Origin: a virus
Strand: one strand, 5' to 3'
UHGV virus genome: UHGV-0062500
DNA: 10,521 nt
Position numbers and translations under genes: made by a program. The notes beneath the pieces were generated by a model. It made no database searches, was not told the origin of the DNA, and was given only the letters and a program-made list of their open reading frames with translations. Positions 1-9,821 of the stretch are shown here, one piece after another. The first letter of the stretch is position 1, and every line of letters begins with the position of its first letter.

Positions 1-142
1 TTTTGGCAATGTGTTTAGACACAATACCAGCCATAAGGTCCCGTTGAGTTGGAAAAACACGAGAATCTTTATTAGCATTCTCGTTCAAAAGGTCTTTATT
101 AGTTTTATGAATCAATCCTTCAATTTCTTTTTCAATTGTCAT
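1..142 (-). CDS. nrdD: Anaerobic (class III) ribonucleoside-triphosphate reductase NrdD, N-terminal 47 codons; gene continues beyond window start
   Basis: Minus-strand ATG at 142-140 overlaps the gene 49 stop (ATGA). Translation MTIEKEIEGLIHKTNKDLLNENANKDSRVFPTQRDLMAGIVSKHIAK is open to the window edge. The LLNENANKDS-V-PTQRDL-AGIV-KH segment matches the conserved NrdD N-terminal region as I recall it, and nrdD lies downstream of 49 in T4. Confidence 0.8.
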   Translation of the reverse strand, partial: MTIEKEIEGLIHKTNKDLLNENANKDSRVFPTQRDLMAGIVSKHIAK

Positions 143-612
143 TTTAAACTCTTTCTAAGCTGCTTCTTAAATGAAGCTATTAATTGTGTTTTAGTGTCAG
201 ATTCATTATATTCAAATCCTCTTTGAAGCATCTCGGCCATCATTTCCTCTTTTCCTAAACGAGAAAATTCCTTTGATTTATCTCCAACGAAGTTAGGGTG
301 AATATTATTTTGGGTGTAATCGGATTTTAAATAAGTAAGTAAATTTTCTAACCATTCAAGATAATCAACACCTTGTCCCTTTAAGCCAGAACGATTAAAT
401 TTATGCTTCATTTGACCTTCTGCGGCATTGCAGAGATTACAAAGCAATCCACGTACCTTTCCTGCTTTTGGTCCATTTAATTCATGGTCATGGTCGAGGT
501 GATTAGCTTGAACGTCAGGATTTAGTTCTCGTTGGCAAATTAAGCATTTACCATTTTGTGCATCATAAAATTTCTGTTTTTCTTCTTTATATAATTTGCC
601 AGTCAATAACAT
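139..612 (-). CDS. 49: Endonuclease VII (Holliday-junction resolvase), 157 aa
   Basis: ATG at 612-610, TGA at 141-139. Protein carries the paired CxxC zinc site (C23/C26 in GKCLICQ, C58/C61 in LLCNLCN) and the HLDHDH block. Sequence recognised from memory as T4 gp49. Confidence 0.9.
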   Translation of the reverse strand: MLLTGKLYKEEKQKFYDAQNGKCLICQRELNPDVQANHLDHDHELNGPKAGKVRGLLCNLCNAAEGQMKHKFNRSGLKGQGVDYLEWLENLLTYLKSDYTQNNIHPNFVGDKSKEFSRLGKEEMMAEMLQRGFEYNESDTKTQLIASFKKQLRKSLK

Positions 613-619
613 AATAAAA

Positions 620-642
620 CCCTTACCTTAAATAGATAAGGG
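620..642 (-). promoter_or_regulatory. RBS-sequestering hairpin in the gene 49 leader
   Basis: Minus-strand RNA CCCUUA-(11-nt loop)-UAAGGG: 6-bp stem, 620-625 paired with 637-642. The 3' stem carries the AAGGG Shine-Dalgarno 7 nt before the ATG. Consistent with the published translational control of T4 gene 49. Confidence 0.55.
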
Positions 643-650
643 TATTTATT
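643..650 (-). promoter_or_regulatory. Candidate T4 late promoter (AATAAATA, 7/8 match to TATAAATA) abutting the hairpin
   Basis: A transcript starting about 6 nt downstream would begin inside the 5' stem and could not form the hairpin. Confidence 0.3.
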
Positions 651-651
651 A

Positions 652-704
652 TTTTCAAGTATTGTAAAACATTCGATGCAATCGTTTATACTGTCGAATC
701 ATCT
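652..704. repeat. 53-nt direct repeat, copy A (about 89% identical to 865-917)
   Basis: ttttcaagtatt[g/a]taaaacatt[c/t]gatgcaatcg[t/c]ttata[c/t]tg[t/c]cgaatcat: 47 of 53 positions identical, offset 213 nt. Covers the 3' end and stop of the 58-aa ORF. Confidence 0.8.
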
Positions 705-831
705 TTTTAGTAGGACGAGAATAGGTTCCTACGCAAGTGGTCATATGAGGGTCCGTAGAATGTCCTTTAATAAAAAGTTTCCAAACCTTACCGCCATTTA
801 ACTTTTCAGTATAAACCAATTCGGTTTTCAT
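655..831 (-). CDS. Hypothetical small protein, 58 aa (MKTELVYTEKLNGGKVWKLFIKGHSTDPHMTTCVGTYSRPTKKMIRQYKRLHRMFYNT); possibly T4 49.1-like
   Basis: Not in the ORF track (under 60 aa). ATG at 831-829 with AAGG about 8 nt upstream; TGA at 657-655. Last 15 residues duplicate the C-terminus of the upstream 161-aa protein because of a 53-nt direct repeat. Confidence 0.4.
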   Translation of the reverse strand: MKTELVYTEKLNGGKVWKLFIKGHSTDPHMTTCVGTYSRPTKKMIRQYKRLHRMFYNT

Positions 832-842
832 TAAAATGCCTT

Positions 843-864
843 GTCAGAAAAAGAATTTTGAGTT
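843..864. repeat. 22-nt exact direct repeat gtcagaaaaagaattttgagtt, copy 1 (intergenic, just downstream of the pin stop)
   Basis: Identical to 919-940, offset 76 nt. With the 53-nt repeats it gives the minus-strand arrangement X-Y-X-novel-Y. Confidence 0.8.
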
Positions 865-917
865 TTTTCAAGTATTATAAAACATTTGATGCAATCGCTT
901 ATATTGCCGAATCATTT
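865..917. repeat. 53-nt direct repeat, copy B (3' end and stop codon of pin)
   Basis: Same alignment as copy A; encodes the shared C-terminus MIRQYKRLH(Q/R)MFYNT. Confidence 0.8.
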
Positions 918-1353
918 GGTCAGAAAAAGAATTTTGAGTTTCAAGCCATTCAATATATTCTGCCGCAGCTTGCATCAGGTTACCTTCATAATCATCAATA
1001 TCTTTTTTCAATGCCACTTTAGCTAATGCATATGAAATACGTTCACCTTGAAAAGCGGCTTTAGGCTTCTGAACATCTTGGCTAGTTCTCTCTACAACTT
1101 CCTCGATTTCACCATTTTCAACGGATTCAGTATTCCACAAACACCAATACGTAATTGGCTTATCATAGATGTTAATAATTTTTCCATCAGAAAGTTCAAT
1201 TTCAATAATTCCAGTGTCAGGCTCTATATCATCTTCACATTCTTTTGCAAGTTCACGAACTTTAAAGACAGTACCTGCACTAAGTTCCGGCCAGTAATTA
1301 CACAGCCCTGTATCAGCACGATTAATTCTAAACCACTTATCTACTGTAATCAT
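868..1353 (-). CDS. pin: Probable PinA (Lon protease inhibitor), 161 aa
   Basis: Track ORF 868..1371 starts on TTG; the first ATG (1353-1351, MITVDKWF...) is preceded by GGAG and gives 161 aa, the size I recall for T4 PinA. Position between 49 and nrdC matches the T4 map. Assignment is by length and position, not by remembered sequence. Confidence 0.55.
   Translation of the reverse strand: MITVDKWFRINRADTGLCNYWPELSAGTVFKVRELAKECEDDIEPDTGIIEIELSDGKIINIYDKPITYWCLWNTESVENGEIEEVVERTSQDVQKPKAAFQGERISYALAKVALKKDIDDYEGNLMQAAAEYIEWLETQNSFSDQMIRQYKRLHQMFYNT
919..940. repeat. 22-nt exact direct repeat, copy 2 (inside the pin coding sequence, encoding ETQNSFSD)
   Basis: Exact match to 843-864. Confidence 0.8.
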
Positions 1354-1504
1354 GTCCCATCTCCATATCAATTAAGTCATTTATCGTTGGTTCATTATAT
1401 ACTGTTTCTTCATCAGTGTAAACCGGTTCTTCCGGCTCTGGCTCTACAGTTTCCCATCTAGCCGCCCACCAAGGTTTAACCCCGAAGCTTATTAAGTTCT
1501 TCAT
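1337..1504 (-). CDS. Hypothetical acidic small protein, 55 aa (MKNLISFGVKPWWAARWETVEPEPEEPVYTDEETVYNEPTINDLIDMEMGHDYSR)
   Basis: ATG at 1504-1502, TAA at 1339-1337; the 3' end overlaps the pin start by 17 nt. Not in the ORF track. Overlaps the next candidate by 29 nt in another frame, so one of the two may be spurious. Confidence 0.3.
   Translation of the reverse strand: MKNLISFGVKPWWAARWETVEPEPEEPVYTDEETVYNEPTINDLIDMEMGHDYSR
1394..1422 (-). promoter_or_regulatory. Sigma70-type early promoter upstream of pin
   Basis: Minus strand gGTTTACA-17 nt-TATAAT: -35 at 1422-1417, -10 at 1399-1394, about 40 nt upstream of the pin ATG. Confidence 0.5.
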
Positions 1505-1646
1505 AATCAATCCAGGATTCTAATCCTGATGGCAAATCAGATTCAATTTCCCAAAGAAGCTCTTCAATTTTCTGAAGACGATCTAGTTCTTCGGCTGGAA
1601 TAGTAACCATTGACGGAGCTCGTGATACATTAATATCGTAAATCAT
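1476..1646 (-). CDS. Hypothetical small protein, 56 aa (MIYDINVSRAPSMVTIPAEELDRLQKIEELLWEIESDLPSGLESWIDYEELNKLRG)
   Basis: Track ORF 1476..1733 starts on GTG and overlaps the 77-aa gene for about 100 nt. I shortened it to the internal ATG at 1646-1644, which has only a weak GGGT upstream; an alternative ATG lies at 1610-1608. TAA at 1478-1476. Confidence 0.3.
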   Translation of the reverse strand: MIYDINVSRAPSMVTIPAEELDRLQKIEELLWEIESDLPSGLESWIDYEELNKLRG

Positions 1647-1863
1647 ATTTACCCAATTTAACCATACAATCGCCGTATTTCCACTTAGAAATAGACTTTT
1701 CACCATTAGAATAATAAACTTCGAGTTTAGCACGATTATTTTTAATTTGAATAACCTTGGCTGTCATCAAAGTTCCATACCCATAATAAACTGCAACTTC
1801 ATCACCTACATATACCGCGCTTCCGCGGTAATCATGAATATAGTCAGTTCCTTCGAGCATCAT
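1630..1863 (-). CDS. Hypothetical protein, 77 aa
   Basis: ATG at 1863-1861 overlaps the nrdC stop (ATGA coupling); TAA at 1632-1630. Uninterrupted 77-codon frame. Confidence 0.6.
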   Translation of the reverse strand: MMLEGTDYIHDYRGSAVYVGDEVAVYYGYGTLMTAKVIQIKNNRAKLEVYYSNGEKSISKWKYGDCMVKLGKYDLRY

Positions 1864-2123
1864 TTAAAATATTCTCGCAGTTGGTCAAATCCACCAATAT
1901 GACTTCCATCAGGAGCAAATACCTGAGGCATTGTTAAGCCGATTTGAGTATCACGACCTAGTTTAGTCAGAAGCTCAGCAATTTTCTCATCATCAAAAAC
2001 ACCTTTTTCCGGCATAATGTTGATAAATTCAAACGGCTGTTTCTTCACAGTCAAGAGACGTTTTGCATTATCGCAATACACGCATTTGTGGATGTTGCTA
2101 TCATAACCATATACTTTAAACAT
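1860..2123 (-). CDS. nrdC: Phage glutaredoxin/thioredoxin, 87 aa
   Basis: ATG at 2123-2121 with AAGGA 5 nt upstream; TGA at 1862-1860. Active-site CVYC (C14..C17) in MFKVYGYDSNIHKCVYCDNAKRLL...; recognised from memory as T4 NrdC. Confidence 0.9.
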   Translation of the reverse strand: MFKVYGYDSNIHKCVYCDNAKRLLTVKKQPFEFINIMPEKGVFDDEKIAELLTKLGRDTQIGLTMPQVFAPDGSHIGGFDQLREYFK

Positions 2124-2124
2124 A

Positions 2125-2367
2125 TTATTCCTTAATTCCTAATACTTGTTTAAAAGTCTCGTCGTAATCAAGACTTTGGCCCGTTTGTTCTTTATGTTTG
2201 TATATAATATCACTTACTTCTGATAGCATATTTTTATATGAACGAGTTAAAGCAGATTTAAGCACGCTGTATCTATCAGGAAATTTACCATGTTCATTAT
2301 AATAAGCTATTGCTAATTCACGGACTGCCTTTTCAGCAGTCTCCATATATTCTTTACGCTTGGTCAT
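2125..2367 (-). CDS. Hypothetical protein, about 80 aa ([51 protein letters not shown]...)
   Basis: Track ORF 2125..2508 starts on TTG and overlaps the upstream gene. I re-called the start at ATG 2367-2365, 14 nt before the upstream TAA; an alternative ATG is at 2346-2344. TAA at 2127-2125 sits 1 nt before the nrdC ATG. Confidence 0.45.
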
Positions 2368-2668
2368 TTTCTTCTCGGTCAAATCGGTGTTTACAATGGC
2401 GACATTTATAACGAAGATTACTAGTCTGCCAATGGACCAATTGCACCTGTTCAGTTCCACATTCAGGGCAATTAGGAACGTTTTTAGAAGCACGTTCGCG
2501 GCGTTCAACCATGACCATTACAGAATCCCAATTAATAGGGCTGCTATAATCATCACAACCATGAATCTTTCTACGCATTTCCAAATCGTCTTCTTCACCG
2601 GCCATAATAATTTTAATTAAACTGGAATTACTTGAAGCTGCAATGTCTTCTAATAAACGCTTTTTCAT
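2354..2668 (-). CDS. Small zinc-ribbon protein, 104 aa
   Basis: ATG at 2668-2666 overlaps the upstream TGA (ATGA) and has GAGGT 7 nt upstream. Contains CPECG...(17 aa)...CRHCKH, a C4 zinc-ribbon signature. N-terminal half is acidic. Confidence 0.6.
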
Positions 2669-3591
2669 TTCAATACCTCAATAGCATTACGTAAACCATT
2701 TGCTTTTGCATTAAGAGCTTTTAACAATTTGGTGTGTTCTGCAATTTGGGCTTCAACTTCAGTCAAACGGGCATTGAGATATTCACGTTCTTCACTCAGA
2801 TTATCAACCTTTTCTACTTTAGGCTCTTTTACAACTGTCTTATATGTATTAGGGTTCTTCAGTTTAATTAGAATGCGTGAACTGTATAACATTGAACCAT
2901 TATCTTCGGTTTCGTCATACATTTCCACTACGTCCATAATTTTTAACATCATGCGGAGTTTATAAGACAACGAACGAATAGTTTTGTTGTGCTTATTAAT
3001 TTCTTTAGCTGTCATGGTGCCGAGATTACGTGAGTAGTAATAAGGAACCTGGATATTAATTAATACTGATGAACCACCTGGCTTGTGTGTTACTTCATCA
3101 GCAATAACCCAATCCTTAACATGAACTGTATTTGTACGGTCATCGCCCGCGGTAAATAGTTTACGAGCATGCTTAAAAAGCATATTCACTTGGTCATTGA
3201 ATTGACAAGCGAATTTATCAGCAAATTTAGTTTCAGGAATGGTAGATAACCAATCAGCCAAATGGGTCTTTTTAACATCGTTAACAATAGTAAATTCAAC
3301 CAAATCAGTTATAGATGTCGCAGATTTAATGAAGCTCGGCTTCATAAAGTTTTTAATGTTATCACGAGCTACAGTAGAAGATAACATACGAGAACGTTTA
3401 AACCATTCAAGCAAATTGCCCAACGAATGAGAATAAGCGTTTTGAGTATCTTTACAGATATGATTTTCCTGGCCAACATATTGAAGGAAATCACGAAGAA
3501 TATTATTAATTACTGCTCTGTGTCCGATCTGATAATTGCGGTGTTTAGTAATAAGACTGTCAAAATAATCAATATAATGTTTACGAGTCAT
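2665..3591 (-). CDS. Hypothetical protein, 308 aa, with C-terminal coiled-coil tail; paralog of the upstream 340-aa protein
   Basis: Track ORF starts on TTG at 3642 and runs through a promoter. The real start is ATG 3591-3589, with a perfect GAGGAG 6 nt upstream. Shares LQYVGQ / EWFKRSR / MDVV blocks with the 340-aa neighbour. Confidence 0.7.
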   Translation of the reverse strand: MTRKHYIDYFDSLITKHRNYQIGHRAVINNILRDFLQYVGQENHICKDTQNAYSHSLGNLLEWFKRSRMLSSTVARDNIKNFMKPSFIKSATSITDLVEFTIVNDVKKTHLADWLSTIPETKFADKFACQFNDQVNMLFKHARKLFTAGDDRTNTVHVKDWVIADEVTHKPGGSSVLINIQVPYYYSRNLGTMTAKEINKHNKTIRSLSYKLRMMLKIMDVVEMYDETEDNGSMLYSSRILIKLKNPNTYKTVVKEPKVEKVDNLSEEREYLNARLTEVEAQIAEHTKLLKALNAKANGLRNAIEVLK

Positions 3592-3619
3592 ATTAATCTC
3601 CTCAGTAGAAAGTAAGAAC

Positions 3620-3649
3620 ATTATACCACATCCTTGTGGCAAAGTAAAC
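3620..3649 (-). promoter_or_regulatory. Sigma70-type early promoter upstream of the 308-aa gene
   Basis: Minus strand GTTTACT-17/18 nt-TATAAT: -35 at 3649-3643, -10 at 3625-3620, followed by the GAGGAG SD and the ATG at 3591. Confidence 0.55.
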
Positions 3650-4671
3650 TAGTTCAGTGCATTTAGTGCATTGTTCAGTTTAGAACGTTGCTTTGTCAGA
3701 TTTTGAACCCTTGACTGAGCTTGTTCTAACGCCTTTTCAGCTTCTAGCACTTCATTGGTCGCTTTAACGAGTTCATCATCTACTGCCTTAAGAGACTTCT
3801 CAATCGCGTCAGCGTGCCATTTTTCTACAGGTTTAAAATTTGAATTTTCAGTAGGAAGAAAACTCACTTTATTAAGTTTACATGCATCTATATTGCTTGA
3901 GCTATACATCCAAAATTTAGGATCGTTTGATAAGTAATTAGATAAATTTAAGTTATCTTGCAATTCCTGCTTTTTCTCTCGCGGGACTTCGTCCTTTCTC
4001 AAAAAATCGTATTTAAATGAAACGATCATATCAAGTTCATATGATGTTGTATCTAACTTAAATCGTTCAAAACGAGGTAAAATCTTAGATTGAACAGCAG
4101 CAACAACATCCATATACTTAAATGCTTCTGTCAGCTGTGATTTAAGACATTCACAAATTGAAAGAGAATTTTTAGTATTAGGCTTAAAGCTAATTCGTGC
4201 AGTTCTATTATTTTCTTTTAACGGTCTTACTTCCATCTGAAGAGTATAACCATCAAATTTCAGGTTCTTTAAGTTAATATCAGAGCCTTTTAATCGACTA
4301 GCAGTAGACAAAATTTGCTTTAATTGTTTACGGAATAGAGCAATAAATCTCCATTCAATACGATAATGATTTGGATTGAAAAATCCAGATGATAAATCGA
4401 CCTTACTTTGACCAACGCCTTGAACAATCAAAGGATTTTTATAATCAATAGTTTTACAGAAATCGGTGAGCTGTTCACGAGCAGTCATTTGTGTAATATA
4501 CCCTGCTTTACTAAAATTACGCACCCATTCACTGCTATTCGTATACTTAAAGTGATGAATAACACGATTAACTTTATCAGGGTCTAAATTATTTTCACAC
4601 AAAAATGTCATAACATCACGAGTATAGCTGGCATTACGAACCATATCTTCAATTTGAGAACGAGTTTTCAT
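3649..4671 (-). CDS. Hypothetical protein, 340 aa, with C-terminal coiled-coil tail
   Basis: ATG at 4671-4669 with AAGGA 5 nt upstream, overlapping the upstream TAA; TAG at 3651-3649. C-terminal 50 aa (LVKATNEVLEAEKALEQAQSRVQNLTKQRSKLNNALNALN) has a heptad-like pattern. Confidence 0.75.
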   Translation of the reverse strand: MKTRSQIEDMVRNASYTRDVMTFLCENNLDPDKVNRVIHHFKYTNSSEWVRNFSKAGYITQMTAREQLTDFCKTIDYKNPLIVQGVGQSKVDLSSGFFNPNHYRIEWRFIALFRKQLKQILSTASRLKGSDINLKNLKFDGYTLQMEVRPLKENNRTARISFKPNTKNSLSICECLKSQLTEAFKYMDVVAAVQSKILPRFERFKLDTTSYELDMIVSFKYDFLRKDEVPREKKQELQDNLNLSNYLSNDPKFWMYSSSNIDACKLNKVSFLPTENSNFKPVEKWHADAIEKSLKAVDDELVKATNEVLEAEKALEQAQSRVQNLTKQRSKLNNALNALN

Positions 4672-4679
4672 GGTGTTCC

Positions 4680-5567
4680 TTAAGATTTAAGTAAATCAAC
4701 GATTTTAATTAATTTTTCACGCTCAGATTTAGCTTTACTACTCAATCCAGATAGTCTGAAAATTTCATCATCATATTGCTGAATAGAAATATTTAGCTCT
4801 TCAATCTGCTTATTAAAATAAGCAATTTGTTCAGAATGTTTTTCATTACTACGAACTGGTACAGGTTTTGTAGGCAATTTAGTTGAACTGGATTCATCCG
4901 GGCGATAAATTAAAATACAACTTGAACCAATCGGACATTTAGCACCAGACACATATTCTAATGTTCCAGCTTCTTTTAAAATTTCAAAAGCTAAACAAAG
5001 ATGATGACCCATATTGGCATAATCTGTAGAGTGAGCTCTGACGTAATAATCATCTCCACGAATACTAAATTTAAAGCATTTAAGGTCTTCTGTATTATTG
5101 GTCTTAAAAATCATTTGTTTATCTAGACCTTTAGCTAATCGAGCGCCTAATGCTAATAATCGTCGTTGATTTTCCCACAAATCAGCAATCATTTGATCGA
5201 ATGACAATTTCGGCATTAGTCTACCATAAAGGTCATATCCTTTATTATAATTGCGAAGAATTTCACTCGCGTTAATACGAGACAACGCTCCAATTTTATT
5301 AAGGGCTTTCATGATGCGATTAGATAAACCCATTCCAGACCCGTTTGTTCGTTGTAAATGTTTATCTAATCCAAATCCAATATCAACTTTAAACTTATCT
5401 AATATTTCAGCATGAACATCTCTGTCAATAACATTCAAATCCAAAGTTGGGTTAAATCTATGAAAAAATTTATCTGGCTCTCCACGACGAAGTACAGTCC
5501 ATTCATTCAATTTTTTATTAACTAAAGATTTAATTACTGCATTGACATTATTAATTACTACTGACAT
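4680..5567 (-). CDS. Hypothetical protein, 295 aa, with C-terminal helical tail
   Basis: Track start is TTG at 5588. The first ATG (5567-5565, MSVVINNV...) has GAGGA 4 nt upstream and lies 8 nt after the upstream TGA. TAA at 4682-4680. Confidence 0.7.
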   Translation of the reverse strand: MSVVINNVNAVIKSLVNKKLNEWTVLRRGEPDKFFHRFNPTLDLNVIDRDVHAEILDKFKVDIGFGLDKHLQRTNGSGMGLSNRIMKALNKIGALSRINASEILRNYNKGYDLYGRLMPKLSFDQMIADLWENQRRLLALGARLAKGLDKQMIFKTNNTEDLKCFKFSIRGDDYYVRAHSTDYANMGHHLCLAFEILKEAGTLEYVSGAKCPIGSSCILIYRPDESSSTKLPTKPVPVRSNEKHSEQIAYFNKQIEELNISIQQYDDEIFRLSGLSSKAKSEREKLIKIVDLLKS

Positions 5568-5574
5568 ATTTTCC

Positions 5575-5982
5575 TCACTCAATTTCAATTTTACTAAATA
5601 TACAGAATAAGATGGAACAGACTATATAAGCACCACACACAGATTGAACTAATACCATTCCAAAGAACCAAACAATATTATCAAACAATGTCTGTTTTAC
5701 GTCGAAAGGACGTAAACTTACAGTAATATTATCGCCTTTTTCTATTGATGAATACATCTCTGGTGAAATATATTCGCTAAATCTATAACCGTCTTTGAGT
5801 TCATATACAGCAATAAACGATAAACTAGACCCCTTTCCTTGAGTTCCTGTAAGGGTATTAACTACAGTAACATCATAATCTTTATAATGCATATAATCAT
5901 TAATTGCGTAATAACCATATGCAACTACTACGCATAAACAACATATCAATAAATTCAATCTTTTAATTATCAACTGTTTCAT
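5575..5982 (-). CDS. Predicted membrane protein, 135 aa (N-terminal signal-anchor, C-terminal transmembrane helix)
   Basis: ATG at 5982-5980. Hydrophobic stretches LNLLICCLCVVVAYGYY (N-terminal) and IVWFFGMVLVQSVCGAYIVCSILFCIF (C-terminal) flank a polar domain of about 70 aa. Preceded by a middle-promoter-like sequence. Confidence 0.65.
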   Translation of the reverse strand: MKQLIIKRLNLLICCLCVVVAYGYYAINDYMHYKDYDVTVVNTLTGTQGKGSSLSFIAVYELKDGYRFSEYISPEMYSSIEKGDNITVSLRPFDVKQTLFDNIVWFFGMVLVQSVCGAYIVCSILFCIFSKIEIE

Positions 5983-6011
5983 AATAATCTCAATTAAAAG
6001 GGCTTAGAACC

Positions 6012-6036
6012 ATTATACCATCCTTGGTATAAAGCG
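6012..6036 (-). promoter_or_regulatory. Candidate MotA-dependent middle promoter upstream of the 135-aa membrane-protein gene
   Basis: Minus strand cGCTTTA (6/7 match to the TGCTTtA MotA box) - 12 nt - TATAAT (6017-6012). No acceptable -35 hexamer at 17 nt spacing. Confidence 0.35.
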
Positions 6037-6037
6037 G

Positions 6038-6565
6038 TTATGCGAGTACCGTCTTTAACCGTTCTTCAAACTTCCGAAGAGTATTTTGGCGTTCAGCTCT
6101 TTGCTTTTTGTAAGTTTCAATACGCTCTGAAATGAGAGTGTATCGTTCATTTACTGATTCTTTCATAAAATCAGGAATTTCACGAGAAGCTTTAATCTCA
6201 TCAAATTTATCAATAACAGCTTGCTCTTCAGCAATTAAGTTATCATACATTAAAATATCTTTCTTGATGAACTCAATATCTTCTTGAGTTACACGAGATA
6301 ATTTAGATGCTTTATCCTTTTTGTACTGTTCGTTAGTATCACGAGACCAGTGTAATGTACGATTTTTATTCGTATTCTTGTAAATTTCTACAATACCGAT
6401 CTCATCAATAATAACGATCCAATTCCAACGGGATTTGTAAATTTGTCCTCCATCAACAGTGATTTCACCTCCGATTGAGATGTCATTAAAGAACTTGCTT
6501 TGCGCTTCAGATTTAAATTTACCATCATTGTAATTTACCAGGTTGAAAATATCTTTAGCGTTCAT
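6038..6565 (-). CDS. Hypothetical protein, 175 aa
   Basis: Track start is TTG at 6625, inside the promoter. The real start is ATG 6565-6563 with GGAGG 8 nt upstream, located just downstream of an early promoter. TAA at 6040-6038. Confidence 0.7.
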   Translation of the reverse strand: MNAKDIFNLVNYNDGKFKSEAQSKFFNDISIGGEITVDGGQIYKSRWNWIVIIDEIGIVEIYKNTNKNRTLHWSRDTNEQYKKDKASKLSRVTQEDIEFIKKDILMYDNLIAEEQAVIDKFDEIKASREIPDFMKESVNERYTLISERIETYKKQRAERQNTLRKFEERLKTVLA

Positions 6566-6593
6566 TTTGTATTCCTCCGTAGTTGATAGTTGT

Positions 6594-6622
6594 ATAGTAC
6601 CACAGAGGAACGGTCTTGTAAA
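6594..6622 (-). promoter_or_regulatory. Sigma70-type early promoter upstream of the 175-aa gene
   Basis: Minus strand aGTTGTTTACAa-17 nt-TGgTACTAT (extended -10): -35 at 6622-6617, -10 at 6599-6594. The flanking 24-nt and 12-nt blocks are identical to the promoter at 8729-8757. Confidence 0.6.
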
Positions 6623-6625
6623 CAA

Positions 6626-6928
6626 CTAAAAGAAACTTCTTTCACAATTTTTTCCACTGAACCAGGCGCTCACTGCTTTCTTAGTCTCAGGAGCAGTGTT
6701 ATCCATAAACCATTCAAAGGCAGCCTTTTTATGATTCTGGAGGGCTTCTCGGGCTTTAATCTGCTCACGGTCTATTAACACTAACATATGAGCCTTTCTT
6801 GTCACCAGGGGCTTTTTATGATTTTTTGAATATTCCCAATCATTTGTCCATCGCATCGTTGTTGCGAATTGAAGTACAGCTTCTTTAATCTTAGTTTCGT
6901 AAATTTCACGAGCCTTTGAGTATAACAT
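6626..6928 (-). CDS. Hypothetical protein, about 100 aa
   Basis: ATG at 6928-6926 is preceded by GGAGG (spacing 5); the track ATG at 6940 has no SD. TAG at 6628-6626. Confidence 0.6.
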   Translation of the reverse strand: MLYSKAREIYETKIKEAVLQFATTMRWTNDWEYSKNHKKPLVTRKAHMLVLIDREQIKAREALQNHKKAAFEWFMDNTAPETKKAVSAWFSGKNCERSFF

Positions 6929-7010
6929 CACTACCTCCATTTACCGGTTTAATTCTAGTCATCTTTTTAATGGCAGTCCATATAATCTATTTCTGAACTT
7001 CCTTTTTGTC

Positions 7011-7729
7011 TTAGGATTCTTCTAAATGTCTTTTCTGAAAAGTTGATACCATACTACGATACGGTTCATTTGGATATCCGTGTTTTATAGCTTCCTTTGT
7101 AAATTTTCTCCATCCATATTTAGTTTCTTTCCAAAGCTCGAATAATTCATCTTCATACTGCCATATAGTTAAATGAGAACGCTTTGCAGCTTTAATTCCA
7201 TTAATATGCTTTTCTTTTACTGTAGGATTACTTAGTTTCTTTTTAATAATATTACTAACTTTTCTAACAAAAACTGGGTCCTTATATCGTTGCGAAGTTT
7301 TTATTGAAGTGTTTAATTTAGCTTCCGGCGTGGATGTGACCTCTTTCATCTTTTTCTTCATATGTTGTATATGATTAGGATTTTTCCATAAATTTATAGA
7401 ATGCTTTTTGCATTTTATCCTAGTTTCATCTGCAACCTTTCCTCCTTCACCCCCGTATGACAGGTTAACACAGTTTTTTCCATATTTCAATTTACCTGCC
7501 ATGATATATAATATTTCAGCTTGTACCATTTTATCATAATTATCAAAAACTTCTAAAACCGTTTTTGATAATATGTGGTCATTTGACACTTTTACACGTT
7601 CTATATAATTTCCACTACCAACATACGAATCATTGATGTTATTAGTTATATGTCGACCATAATAGTATTTCTTAATACCTGTCTTTAAATTTAATATTTC
7701 AGTTTTATAGATAGTAAAATATTTTTCAT
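7011..7729 (-). pseudogene. Seg-like GIY-YIG homing endonuclease, about 239 codons, disrupted by a 1-nt frameshift at an A5 run immediately after the start codon
   Basis: ATG at 7729-7727 overlaps the ATPase stop (ATGA) but that frame stops after 12 codons. The adjacent frame is open for 46 codons (7730-7590) with no ATG/GTG/TTG and joins the 192-aa track ORF. With six instead of five A at 7726-7722 the protein would read MKKYFTIYKTEILNLKTGIKKYYYGRHITNNINDSYVGSGNYIERVKVSNDH..., GIY-YIG-like and alignable to I-TevI NNKVYVGSAKDFEKRWKRH. The C-terminal half has repeated NUMOD-like basic motifs. Locally AT-rich, with no SD before the GTG at 7589. Confidence 0.45.
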
Positions 7730-8694
7730 TTTAATAATACCGTTTCAGCAATTTCTTCCCAACCGTTTTTGTCGGTCATAATAAAGTCAGCAAGATAAAG
7801 CGCAGTACGCAGTGAAACATTGCGTAAACGATTAACATTGACTTTCATCCATGATAATGCTTTATAAGTTTCTTCATCAGAAAGACCGCGCTTTTGCATC
7901 ATGTCAGTTGAAAGAATAACATCTTCAACCCTGACCATAATTTCTTCATTAGTGTGAACACCCAAATCCAAATAAACTGAGCGGGACACTAATGCTTGTA
8001 AATGTGGAGCAAGTTTAGTACCACGGTCTAATTCGCGGTCAATGTCAACGTTTGTGATAAAAACAATCGTTCCTTTAAATTCAAACTCACGCTCAATGCC
8101 TTTTTCTTCTAAGTAAGAAGATGCAGTGCTCCAGCAGACTTTACGGGTCTCTCCAGTGTCCAGAGCAGCTTTCAGAAGATTAAGAATGTCCATATCAGAG
8201 AAAACATCCACATCATCAATCAAAAGGACAGAATTCTCTTCACGATTATTCCAAAGCTGCTCATAAAGACCGATACCAGAGATTTTACCATTAATGCTTT
8301 TATACTCAATGTATCCAATATCATTTGCTTTATTTAAAGCTTTATCTAAAGAATACGTTTTACCAATGCCTGCTGCTCCTGAGATAATTAATGAACGAAT
8401 GTTTCCGTTAATAATACCATTCGTCATCATTCCCATAACATTAAATCTTTTATTAATGCGGGTTTTCATATCTTCATATGATTCTTTAACTTCTTCAACT
8501 TTTACACCATCATATGAAATGTCTGATTTGTAAACCCAAACACCGCGACGCTTACCGTCAATTTCAACAAAAACTTTACCATCTCCTTGCGCATCTACCG
8601 GAGCATTATCTGGGAACCATTCGCCTAAGAGCTCAAAAGTTCCAGAGATTTCTTTACCGAAGTAAATACCCTTATTGATAGTTACAGTTTTCAT
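7726..8694 (-). CDS. P-loop (AAA+-like) ATPase, 322 aa
   Basis: Track ORF starts at 8811 and reads through a terminator and promoter. The real start is ATG 8694-8692 with GGAG 7 nt upstream. Walker A ISGAAGIGKTYS, Walker B VLLIDDVD, sensor-1-like FITNVD; about 100-aa N-terminal domain before the P-loop. Confidence 0.8.
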   Translation of the reverse strand: MKTVTINKGIYFGKEISGTFELLGEWFPDNAPVDAQGDGKVFVEIDGKRRGVWVYKSDISYDGVKVEEVKESYEDMKTRINKRFNVMGMMTNGIINGNIRSLIISGAAGIGKTYSLDKALNKANDIGYIEYKSINGKISGIGLYEQLWNNREENSVLLIDDVDVFSDMDILNLLKAALDTGETRKVCWSTASSYLEEKGIEREFEFKGTIVFITNVDIDRELDRGTKLAPHLQALVSRSVYLDLGVHTNEEIMVRVEDVILSTDMMQKRGLSDEETYKALSWMKVNVNRLRNVSLRTALYLADFIMTDKNGWEEIAETVLLK

Positions 8695-8728
8695 TTTATT
8701 CTCCAAATCCGTATCAGTTGATAGTTGT

Positions 8729-8757
8729 ATAGTACCATAAAGCTTTATGCTTGTAAA
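8729..8757 (-). promoter_or_regulatory. Sigma70-type early promoter upstream of the ATPase gene
   Basis: Minus strand TTTACA (8757-8752) - 17 nt - TGgTACTAT (8734-8729), with an A/T-rich block upstream. Sits just downstream of the terminator, followed by the GGAG SD and ATG at 8694. Confidence 0.6.
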
Positions 8758-8777
8758 CAACTTTGTGAAAAATTTTT

Positions 8778-8806
8778 GAAATAAAAAGGGAGCCCGAAGG
8801 CTCCCT
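8778..8806 (-). terminator. Rho-independent terminator after the nucleotidyltransferase gene
   Basis: Minus-strand RNA GGGAGCC-UUCG-GGCUCCC (7-bp GC-rich stem, UUCG tetraloop) followed by UUUUUAUUUC, starting 2 nt after the TGA at 8810-8808. Confidence 0.8.
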
Positions 8807-8807
8807 A

Positions 8808-9821
8808 TCATTTATAATAACTTCGATGGTTTTCAAGATAGACCTTCTCAAGGAAGTCATCCCAGAAACTCATGTCTACTTTTTGTTGCATACCGTTCTT
8901 AGAAGCTTCAGTAGATGCTGCTTCTACTTGATCGACCACATCTTCCAAAAACTCTTGGACTGTTTTAAATGGATGTTTACCCAACTTCACGTCGAGAATA
9001 AATGGAGCATCTTGGAGTGGATAAATCAAGTCGCCAGTTTTGTAAATTTCCAATAGTTGAAGTCCACCACGACAAGCATGGCTCAGAGCTTTCCAGTCAA
9101 TACCTTCATTGGCTTCAGCCTTACGAGCACGTTCACCATATTCAGCATCTAATTTGTTCAGTGACTGCTTAAGCTCAATAAGAGAAAGCGTTGTCTGATA
9201 TTTACGACCCAACACAGTGTAGAACGTTTGTGGGCCTGTTTTCTCATGATTATGGAACACCCATTCACAGAATTCGTTTTCTGGAAGACGATGCTTAATA
9301 TCTTCAACTTTAGTGCGACGCTGCTTAATAGAACCATCTTCTTGGTAATCAACCCATTGCTCAGGGATTTGATTAACTACTTTCAATACATCACGTAATG
9401 CAGCCAAACGAGAACCCTTGACACCGTATTTAGAAGCTTGCTTACGGACATATCCTAAATATGATTTCATGTTAGTCGTATAAAAACGAGAACGGTTGTC
9501 TTGAATAAACTTCCACACATCAGGCAAATCAGATTTAACCACTAGTTCAGGTGGAGTGTGAAGCATATCTAATGCTACAGTTTCACCATCTGCTGCTAAT
9601 TTAAAGAAATATTTAAGACTGTATAGTTCATGGTCAATATCATCTTTAGTGTTTTTAGATGATGTGTTGTTAGTGTTTTTACTCATATGCTCTTTAACAT
9701 TTCCGATAAGAATATCGCGAGCAGAAGGAACAAAGATTTCTTTAAAATCTACATCAGATTCTGGGGTAGAAGTTCCATAAAGATGACTACCAAAATAGCT
9801 TTTCATTACTGTTTTCATCAT
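8808..9821 (-). CDS. Predicted Pol-beta-superfamily nucleotidyltransferase, 337 aa
   Basis: ATG at 9821-9819 overlaps the upstream TGA. N-terminal YFGSHLYGTSTPESDVDF is a canonical minimal-NTase motif (G-S-x10-D-x-D), with a candidate third acidic residue in TVALDML. C-terminal about 250 aa is helical. Intrinsic terminator immediately downstream. Confidence 0.75.
   Translation of the reverse strand: MMKTVMKSYFGSHLYGTSTPESDVDFKEIFVPSARDILIGNVKEHMSKNTNNTSSKNTKDDIDHELYSLKYFFKLAADGETVALDMLHTPPELVVKSDLPDVWKFIQDNRSRFYTTNMKSYLGYVRKQASKYGVKGSRLAALRDVLKVVNQIPEQWVDYQEDGSIKQRRTKVEDIKHRLPENEFCEWVFHNHEKTGPQTFYTVLGRKYQTTLSLIELKQSLNKLDAEYGERARKAEANEGIDWKALSHACRGGLQLLEIYKTGDLIYPLQDAPFILDVKLGKHPFKTVQEFLEDVVDQVEAASTEASKNGMQQKVDMSFWDDFLEKVYLENHRSYYK

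Follow-up and report, generated by a model that had tools for sequence, protein, structure and literature searches.

Three small overlapping reading frames between nrdC and pin of a T2/RB-type phage are very probably genuine genes of an ordinary early cluster

Three small open reading frames (ORFs), here called A, B and C, lie within 527 nt between the genes nrdC and pin of the virus genome UHGV-0062500, and each of them uses a different frame of the same strand. Such an arrangement raises the question of whether all three are genes, whether one of them is a mere shadow or whether the region is a case of genuine overprinting. We analysed a stretch of 10,521 nucleotides of this genome, which is referred to as the window. 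Recomputation of the ORFs returned the coordinates given in the original prediction (Table 1), where the starts at 1863, 1646 and 1504 correspond to 0, 2 and 1 modulo 3 and therefore place A, B and C in three frames. The overlaps were found to be 4 nt (nrdC/A), 17 nt (A/B), 29 nt (B/C) and 17 nt (C/pin), in agreement with the two lengths that had been predicted for B/C and C/pin. The A/B overlap had been absent from that prediction. We conclude that A, B and C are very probably genuine coding genes which belong to established phage families and form an ordinary early cluster in the order nrdC-A-B-C-pin. All three genes are already catalogued and the cluster is already known.

Table 1. Features of the nrdC-pin region, in window coordinates
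Feature	Position	Strand	Remarks
nrdC	1860..2123	minus	thioredoxin/glutaredoxin, 87 aa; upstream gene of the cluster; from the ORF list and the annotation in relatives
ORF A	ATG 1863 to stop 1630	minus	77 aa
G run at the A/B junction	1652..1654	minus	GGG here; resembles a Shine-Dalgarno sequence of B
ORF B	ATG 1646 to stop 1476	minus	56 aa
Hairpin TCAGGATTAGAATCCTGG	1512..1529	minus	just 5' of the ORF C start, in the codons of PSGLESW of B
ORF C	ATG 1504 to stop 1337	minus	55 aa; 57 aa if from TTG 1510
Early-promoter-like site GTTTACA-N17-TATAAT	~1394..1423	minus	inside ORF C; sigma-70/T4-early-like, 11/12 positions at 1422..1394
pin Shine-Dalgarno GGAG	1361..1364	minus	7 nt upstream of the pin ATG; in the M-E codons of C
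pin	868..1353 (ATG 1353)	minus	Lon protease inhibitor, 161 aa; downstream gene; from the ORF list and the annotation in relatives

The length of these ORFs by itself is not above chance in such AT-rich DNA, and an antisense ORF of 137 aa on the plus strand (1048..1461) is longer than A, B or C. The support for the three ORFs therefore comes from conservation and not from their length. In profile searches against PHROG, ORF A matched phrog_2112 (E 6e-42), ORF B matched phrog_3402 over residues 1-56 of 56 (E 2.6e-40) and residues 7-57 of ORF C matched phrog_2382 (E 1.9e-33). ORF A is also a member of the Pfam family DUF7205 (PF23835), where it scored 44.6 bits (E 1.5e-11) at a gathering cutoff of 27, and its protein is small and about neutral to basic. 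The family of ORF B comprises 78 protein clusters and 830 phage records, and PF26863 was carried by 50/50 clusters of ORF C relatives. A search of NCBIfam with A, B and C returned nothing meaningful.

Selection was observed to act on the frame of each ORF. Pooled pairwise counts, which are not phylogenetically independent and in which pS is near saturation, gave an in-frame pN/pS of 0.28 (bootstrap interval 0.19-0.38) for ORF A against 0.98 and 1.49 in its shifted frames, 0.50 (0.39-0.61) for ORF B, and 0.45 (0.34-0.59) for ORF C against 1.0 and 1.44. The ratios of B and C are only moderately low. Shifted frames as a whole gave values of about 0.7-1.75, and the in-frame bootstrap intervals of A, B and C were lower than the intervals of these frames (0.74-1.75). 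Frame-specific conservation had been proposed in the original prediction as the means of telling genes from spurious frames, and all three ORFs passed this test.

The window derives from a metagenome contig and represents a Tequatrovirus of the T2/RB type, not T4. Its best matches are T-even phages with up to 98.6% identity, and its NrdC protein is 100% identical to that of T4. All three ORFs are annotated in phage U115, and the A-B cassette is also present in T2. The suspicion against one of the ORFs had been based on a T4 map with two small genes between pin and nrdC. T4 actually has three, in the order pin, 49.1, 49.2, 49.3 and nrdC with overlaps of 17, 16, 4 and 4 nt, and only 49.1 is homologous to a small ORF of the window, which is ORF C. 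Since A and B are unrelated to 49.2 and 49.3, the T4 map is useless for judging which ORF could be spurious. The segment from C to nrdC is a swappable cassette, which holds 49.2 and 49.3 in T4 but A and B here, in T2 and in many RB phages, and this accounts for the misfit of the T4 map. The T4 map is thus not transferable to this region.

ORF A had been ranked the most credible of the three, yet its C-terminus is atypical through a one-base deletion found only here. The G run at the A/B junction was observed to be GGGG in 7/7 close relatives examined directly in a junction alignment. Furthermore, the best 30 of the 360 matching phage records have 99.0% identity and cover 102 nt against the 101 nt of the query, and this one extra base is consistent with a longer G run. 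With GGGG, ORF A is 71 aa long and ends in a TAA which is followed by 2 nt and the ATG of B. Deletion of one base from the run adds six codons to A and creates the 17-nt overlap with B. In addition, relatives have a stop codon 12 nt upstream of the B ATG, so that they have no equivalent of the 85-aa form of B (from GTG 1733) that appears in the mechanical ORF list and would overlap A by 104 nt. Both this extension and the A/B overlap are therefore due to the one-base deletion particular to the window sequence.

The 77-aa form of ORF A is probably either an artefact of the homopolymer or a variant that is peculiar to this sequence. We give roughly even chances to an assembly error in the homopolymer, by which the true gene would have 71 aa and would not overlap B. 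The GGG form was seen only in the window and in the metagenome contig UMED01029746.1, which matches positions 1..8829 of the window with 100% identity and is hence of the same source, and none was found among the IMG/VR contigs searched. Together with the longer run in the relatives and in the best 30 of the 360 records, this argues for an error, as does a public protein (P0130) with two homopolymer-type frameshifts in the same gene. However, the isolate genome of Shigella phage SH7 has GGGGG, by which A and B are fused, and real changes in the length of the run therefore occur. The six added residues also come after the conserved ...CMVKL(G) terminus and would not necessarily impair the protein. 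We also considered programmed slippage at the G run, with A, extended A and an A-B fusion as its products, and regarded it as unlikely because G3 and G5 are each present in one or two sequences out of hundreds.

Genuine overprinting, where one frame is born de novo inside another gene and both come under selection, could be suggested by the presence of three frames in 527 nt, by a 29-nt overlap that exceeds the usual 1-4 nt and by the 104 nt that the listed 85-aa B would share with A. Overprinting implies a substantial shared stretch with both frames under purifying selection, whereas the stretches shared here are merely 4, 17, 29 and 17 nt long, and the A/B overlap and the longer B exist only through the deletion in the window. 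T4 early genes across the same region also overlap, by 4, 4, 16, 17 and 14 nt, so that overlaps of 14-17 nt are found between neighbours there too. In the B/C overlap, which is the longest, 4/4 substitutions in loci L011 and L012 are silent in B and change the amino acid in C, which indicates that only the B frame is conserved in this stretch. Moreover, each of A, B and C is found elsewhere alone or in a different order. For example, B precedes A in L014 and L015, B and C are separated by another gene in L007 and L009, and in L011, L012 and P0026 B is present as the C-terminal domain of proteins of 105-118 aa, while relatives of ORF A at 61-72% identity were found in other gene contexts. On this evidence we regard overprinting as extremely improbable.

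The same question of a shadow is most pointed for ORF C, as the DNA of this ORF also appears to carry the signals for pin. By its sequence, ORF C is the orthologue of T4 gp49.1 (PF26863, phrog_2382), being 90% identical to it over 51 aa (UniProt P39490). The original prediction had placed the early promoter of pin within this ORF, and a promoter-like site that agrees with the consensus at 11/12 positions was indeed found there. Among relatives having the V-Y residues, the codons of the hexamers were observed to be fixed (GTT in 20/20, TAC in 19/21, TAT in 28/28 and AAT in 18/18) whereas other codons vary, although the -35 element is absent from the L049-L061 group. The GAG codon of the pin Shine-Dalgarno sequence is likewise fixed in 29/30 sequences. 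Part of the conservation of C, namely that of the VYT, YNE and DME codons, could stem from the promoter and Shine-Dalgarno sequence of pin and not from the peptide.

If this held for the whole ORF, C would be a non-coding shadow whose conservation reflects only the promoter, 5' leader and ribosome-binding site of pin. The fixed codons of these signals would fit such a reading, as would the omission of C from the RefSeq annotation of G9062, a weak Shine-Dalgarno sequence of its own and a protein that is acidic (pI 4.14), mostly predicted as coil and largely disordered (AF2 pTM 0.23). However, the best-conserved block of the peptide, KPW[YW]xARWETVEPE, precedes the promoter and keeps its amino acids with free codon variation, where five codons were observed for R, four for P and more than one for K, T and V. 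Almost all conserved residues of C show synonymous codon variation, and the KPWYAARWETVEPE part of the ORF precedes the promoter and the Shine-Dalgarno motif. The low in-frame pN/pS relative to the shifted frames points in the same direction, together with a frame that is open in 36 loci and a family that has been curated in Pfam. T4 gp49.1 has also been detected by mass spectrometry in a T4 proteome study, where it is assigned to the 'early RNA / late protein' class in Table S4 (PMC9697503). It is thus very unlikely that C is a shadow. The original prediction had offered a shadow or overprinting as the two choices, and neither applies, as all three ORFs are conserved in their own frames and their overlaps are short and terminal. 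Selection on each frame, the varied orders and contexts of the genes and the detection of T4 gp49.1 together argue for three genuine coding genes.

The start of ORF C is supplied by whichever gene lies upstream, as observed across the 36 loci. In the window its ATG lies 26 nt ahead of the B stop codon, within the D-Y-E codons of B. No good Shine-Dalgarno sequence precedes it; GGA is present 6 nt upstream and an AGGA lies inside a hairpin. The hairpin of Table 1 was considered as a translational operator for C and appeared to be incidental, because its codons vary freely and the hairpin is not maintained. The LPSGLESW motif of B to which the codons belong is itself invariant, with synonymous codons that vary freely among homologues. 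A scan of positions 700..2700 against Rfam gave a single chance match (E 0.22).

ORF B encodes an acidic protein (pI 4.15) that is predicted to be helical, and its AF2 model is of acceptable quality with a mean pLDDT of 78.8. Searching this fold with Foldseek gave no match in the PDB and only a relative of the same family in BFVD, and a sequence search against the PDB gave nothing below E 0.8. The family phrog_3402 is labelled 'antitoxin from a toxin-antitoxin system', but no antitoxin match to B was found in the Pfam, NCBIfam, PDB and structure searches. The neighbours of B differ among phages, and no recognised toxin was present among those seen (A, C, nrdC, pin and a 49.2-type gene). The label is a propagated name for which no support was found, and 'ribonucleotide reductase', as applied to T4 gp49.2, is probably another such name. 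Two known proteins resemble B in being small, acidic early phage proteins of ~50-60 aa, namely T7 gp5.9 and T4 Dmd. A Dmd-like antitoxin (acting against RnlA/LsoA) was rejected since Dmd belongs to another PHROG family and hhalign gave a probability of 0.2%. B shows a local resemblance to gp5.9 (MVTIPAEEL...; PF25708, E 5.6e-4) that extends over only 19 residues and was accompanied by a weak PHROG match, and a gp5.9-like RecBCD inhibitor was rejected on a score of 20.2 bits, which is below the cutoff of 24.5, and on an hhalign probability of 0.1%.

The arrangement of the cluster suggests how it may be expressed. At every junction the start codon is located at or shortly before the upstream stop codon on the same strand, which is the arrangement of coupled T-even early genes, and the short terminal overlaps would be consistent with translational coupling along a polycistronic mRNA of the early class. 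The TGA of nrdC and the ATG of ORF A share the sequence ATGA, so that the junction suggestive of coupling between nrdC and the 77-aa ORF is present as originally proposed. A would be coupled to nrdC through this ATGA, B would normally follow A as TAA, 2 nt and ATG, C would start within B, and pin would start 17 nt before the end of C. The DNA of gene C would then have three roles, as it would encode a conserved acidic peptide, carry an early promoter and provide the Shine-Dalgarno sequence of pin. With the promoter and Shine-Dalgarno sequence inside C, Pin could be produced by read-through as well as from a transcript of its own, for which a start near 1387 is predicted. We infer the activity of this promoter, as we do the biochemical roles of A, B and C. 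The literature searched contained no paper on 49.1, the A-B cassette or the mapping of the pin promoter, and a preprint on Mosigvirus early proteins does not mention the region.

The C/pin overlap of 17 nt was observed to be kept in 25/36 loci. It persists down to ~30% Pin identity, which is compatible with a module of gp49.1 and Pin and is no proof of a functional link. A conserved two-gene functional module, in which gp49.1 would work together with, or act upon, Pin and the Lon protease, for example as a co-inhibitor, decoy substrate or regulator, is a tentative idea that we consider rather unlikely; in such a module the same ~150 nt would encode the acidic, largely disordered gp49.1 and carry the predicted promoter and ribosome-binding site of pin. 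The significance of the cluster lies mainly in annotation, as all three ORFs deserve to be annotated in T2/RB-type genomes and some RefSeq records omit the gp49.1 homologue. A modest biological point is the putative three-role 49.1 gene, which stays closely linked to pin throughout the subfamily.

Comparison with T4 shows what is shared and what is exchanged. T4 gp49.1 is identical to ORF C from KPWW to the C-terminus, and its junction with pin is like that of the window, with the same position, the 17-nt overlap, GTTTACA-N17-TATAAT and GGAG before pin. The N-termini differ, with MKNLISFGV- in ORF C and MDYAI- in gp49.1, since ORF C takes its start codon from B whereas 49.1 takes its own from 49.2. 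The length shared with the preceding gene differs as well, being 29 nt for ORF C and 16 nt for 49.1. Genes 49.2 and 49.3 lie between 49.1 and nrdC, in the place that A and B take here, and their junctions are of a similar style, with 4 nt shared with nrdC and the start of 49.1 inside the 3' end of its upstream gene. However, they have no sequence relationship with A and B and belong to other PHROG families (phrog_2294 and phrog_4203). A close known counterpart is the A-B cassette of T2 and the RB phages (for example RB32ORF082c and RB32ORF081c, or U115_083 and U115_082), whose two genes lie between nrdC and 49.1 in the same order. Its A and B proteins are 88-100% identical to those of the window and are annotated as hypothetical in hundreds of genomes. 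In these phages A has 71 aa and ends 2 nt before the ATG of B, whereas A of the window has 77 aa and overlaps B by 17 nt.

The sequence identifies ORFs A, B and C, which lie between nrdC (a thioredoxin/glutaredoxin gene) and pin (the Lon protease inhibitor gene), as three real small genes of already known families in an ordinary, densely packed early-gene cluster. The original prediction of three small overlapping ORFs in three different frames is borne out by their coordinates in the window; its reading of one of them as a shadow or as overprinted is not. In this part of the window every gene is encoded on the minus strand, and neighbors overlap by 4 nt (nrdC/A, where the nrdC stop and the ORF A start share ATGA), 17 nt (A/B), 29 nt (B/C) and 17 nt (C/pin). 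A plus-strand ORF of 137 aa (1048..1461), antisense to pin and ORF C, is longer than each of A, B and C and probably shadows the minus-strand genes; ORF length is therefore no evidence for the three in the AT-rich DNA found here.

Features of the nrdC-pin stretch
Feature	Position	Strand	Size and remarks
nrdC	2123..1860	minus	87 aa
ORF A	ATG 1863 to 1630	minus	77 aa
ORF B	ATG 1646 to 1476	minus	56 aa; 85-aa version from GTG 1733 in mechanical ORF list
ORF C	ATG 1504 to 1337	minus	55 aa; 57 aa if from TTG 1510
Promoter-like site TTTACA-N17-TATAAT, G before it	1422..1394	minus	11 of 12 positions match; inside ORF C
pin	ATG 1353 to 868	minus	161 aa

For ORF A the family matches are phrog_2112 (E 6e-42) and, at 44.6 bits with a cutoff of 27, Pfam DUF7205; ORF B matches phrog_3402 across its full length (E 2.6e-40) and ORF C matches phrog_2382 (E 1.9e-33), with PF26863 present in 50 of 50 ORF C relatives from a large protein database. 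ORF B is represented by 78 protein clusters and was hit in 830 phage records, some of them from phages that infect Klebsiella, Enterobacter, Serratia and Citrobacter; ORF C was hit in 664 records. Frame-specific conservation, which the original prediction set as one check on these ORFs, was found for all three, where codon alignments gave in-frame pN/pS values of 0.28 for A (bootstrap interval 0.19-0.38), 0.50 for B (0.39-0.61) and 0.45 for C (0.34-0.59) against 0.74-1.75 in the shifted frames. The LPSGLESW motif of B is invariant, with many codons used for its S, G, L and E, and C shows synonymous variation at nearly every conserved residue (for example, five codons for R and four for P). The T4 orthologue of C, gp49.1, carries the class 'early RNA / late protein' in a time-resolved T4 proteome study (PMC9697503, Table S4) with identifications for 85% of the annotated proteins.

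Across 57 related loci in IMG/VR the three genes differ in order and context. L014 and L015 have nrdC, B and A followed by C and pin, whereas L007 and L009 have a 49.2-type gene between B and C. In L011, L012 and protein P0026, B makes up the C-terminal domain of proteins of 105-118 aa. In some relatives a protein ending in this domain, about 99-118 aa long, comes directly after nrdC (phrog_11244; L011:1324-1680, L012:1279-1635, P0026 and P0073), so that B acts like a mobile domain.

Window positions 1..8829 are 100% identical, in reverse complement, to the ENA metagenome contig UMED01029746.1 (9115 nt), so the window derives from (or overlaps) a metagenome assembly and not an isolate genome. 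A G run at the A/B junction (1654..1652) reads GGG in the window and GGGG in all seven close relatives examined directly, and the 30 best hits listed among 360 matching phage records all span one base more than the window does. In the GGGG form A is 71 aa, ending in CMVKLG, and its TAA falls 2 nt before the ATG of B, whereas in the GGG form A runs six codons further (KYDLRY) into B and the frame of B is opened upstream to give the 85-aa ORF. Among the IMG/VR and metagenome contigs searched, the GGG form was not found outside the window and its own source contig; the 77-aa A and the A/B overlap are therefore either a variant confined to this sequence or a homopolymer error. In Shigella phage SH7 (KX828711 42757-42857) the run is GGGGG, and A and B are fused in a single frame of 129 aa; five Gs possibly also occur in Ec_YwIITB1, with four in nearly all genomes. 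In L007 the run lies at about 1496-1500. The run looks like the Shine-Dalgarno sequence of B.

At the B/C junction, the ATG of C is read as T-ATG-A within the D-Y-E codons of B. L011 and L012 carry four substitutions in the 29-nt overlap, and since each of them is silent in B yet changes an amino acid in C, only the frame of B is constrained here and the first ~9 residues of C serve as a lead-in. The number of residues ahead of KPW in C ranges from 2 to ~9 across loci. Overprinting at A/B, B/C and C/pin was rejected; overlaps of 14-17 nt are normal among T4 early genes.

The 17-nt C/pin overlap is retained in 25 of 36 loci, even at ~30% Pin identity, and the GGAG located 7 nt ahead of the pin ATG is made by the M-E codons of C. 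GTTTAC-N17-TATAAT is the T4 early-promoter consensus. The pin early promoter predicted inside the 55-aa ORF is supported by the match of the promoter-like site and by near-fixed codons in the C alignment at the -35 (GTT 20/20, TAC 19/21) and -10 elements (TAT 28/28, AAT 18/18). The pin Shine-Dalgarno codon is likewise GAG in 29 of 30, whereas comparable codons elsewhere in C vary, as in the Y of KPWY (TAT 17, TAC 6). The -35 element is absent in one divergent group, L049-L061. A further E codon of C, in ETVEPE (~1450..1445; codon 12 of the KPW-core alignment, T-V-E-P-E), was GAG in 30 of 30 unique sequences while nearby E codons vary; no overlapping signal explaining it was identified.

Protein A (~8 kDa) has the conserved motif DYRG...YYGYG...SKWKYG.CMVKL. 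In a library of 1.8 billion proteins, its DUF7205-like domain recurs in tandem in a few large proteins, among them P0136 (8 matched stretches in 1192 aa) and P0139 (5 in 527 aa). B is acidic (pI 4.15) with three predicted helices (pLDDT 78.8), and a search with the predicted fold gave no structural neighbor in the PDB and, in BFVD, no more than a member of B's own family. Its name, 'antitoxin from a toxin-antitoxin system', is a PHROG family label (phrog_3402; RefSeq homologues) for which no support was found; B is unrelated to the T4 antitoxin Dmd, and a weak resemblance to T7 gp5.9 fails for the B family profile. C is also acidic (pI 4.14) and is predicted to be mostly coil. Among the three, the one lead to function is that C is tightly linked to pin.

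Judged by its sequence, the window is not T4. Its closest matches are other Tequatroviruses, with phage U115 at the top (98.6%), and the A-B-C arrangement is common to T2 and many RB phages. The U115 annotation includes A, B and C at 71, 56 and 57 aa; that of RefSeq G9062 has A and B and leaves out C. Between pin and gene 49, where T4 has only ~40 nt, the window holds a 58-aa ORF (655..831, minus; phrog_3272, E 3.4e-34) whose last 17 codons (KKMIRQYKRLHRMFYNT, then stop) nearly repeat the C-terminus of pin (DQMIRQYKRLHQMFYNT, then stop), and this looks like a recombination scar left by an insertion. The T4 gene 49.2 (NC_000866 47506..47826; phrog_2294) bears the product name 'ribonucleotide reductase', which appears to be PHROG-derived. 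P0127 (Escherichia phage UFV-AREG1, 70 aa) is chimeric, joining window-type gp49.1 residues 1-24 (MKNLISFGVKPWWAARWETVEPEP) to a gp49.2-like segment, and is either a recombinant of two cassette types or an assembly or annotation artefact. The original prediction placed two small genes at the T4 locus; T4 in fact has three, 49.1 (51 aa), 49.2 (106 aa) and 49.3 (102 aa), with overlaps of 17, 16, 4 and 4 nt in the pin-nrdC interval. ORF C is identical to T4 gp49.1 from KPWW through the C-terminal end, but gp49.2 and gp49.3 show no relationship to A and B, and the 49.1-nrdC segment is therefore a swappable cassette. Its breakpoint lies at the opening codons of 49.1, whose start codon thus comes from whatever gene sits upstream.
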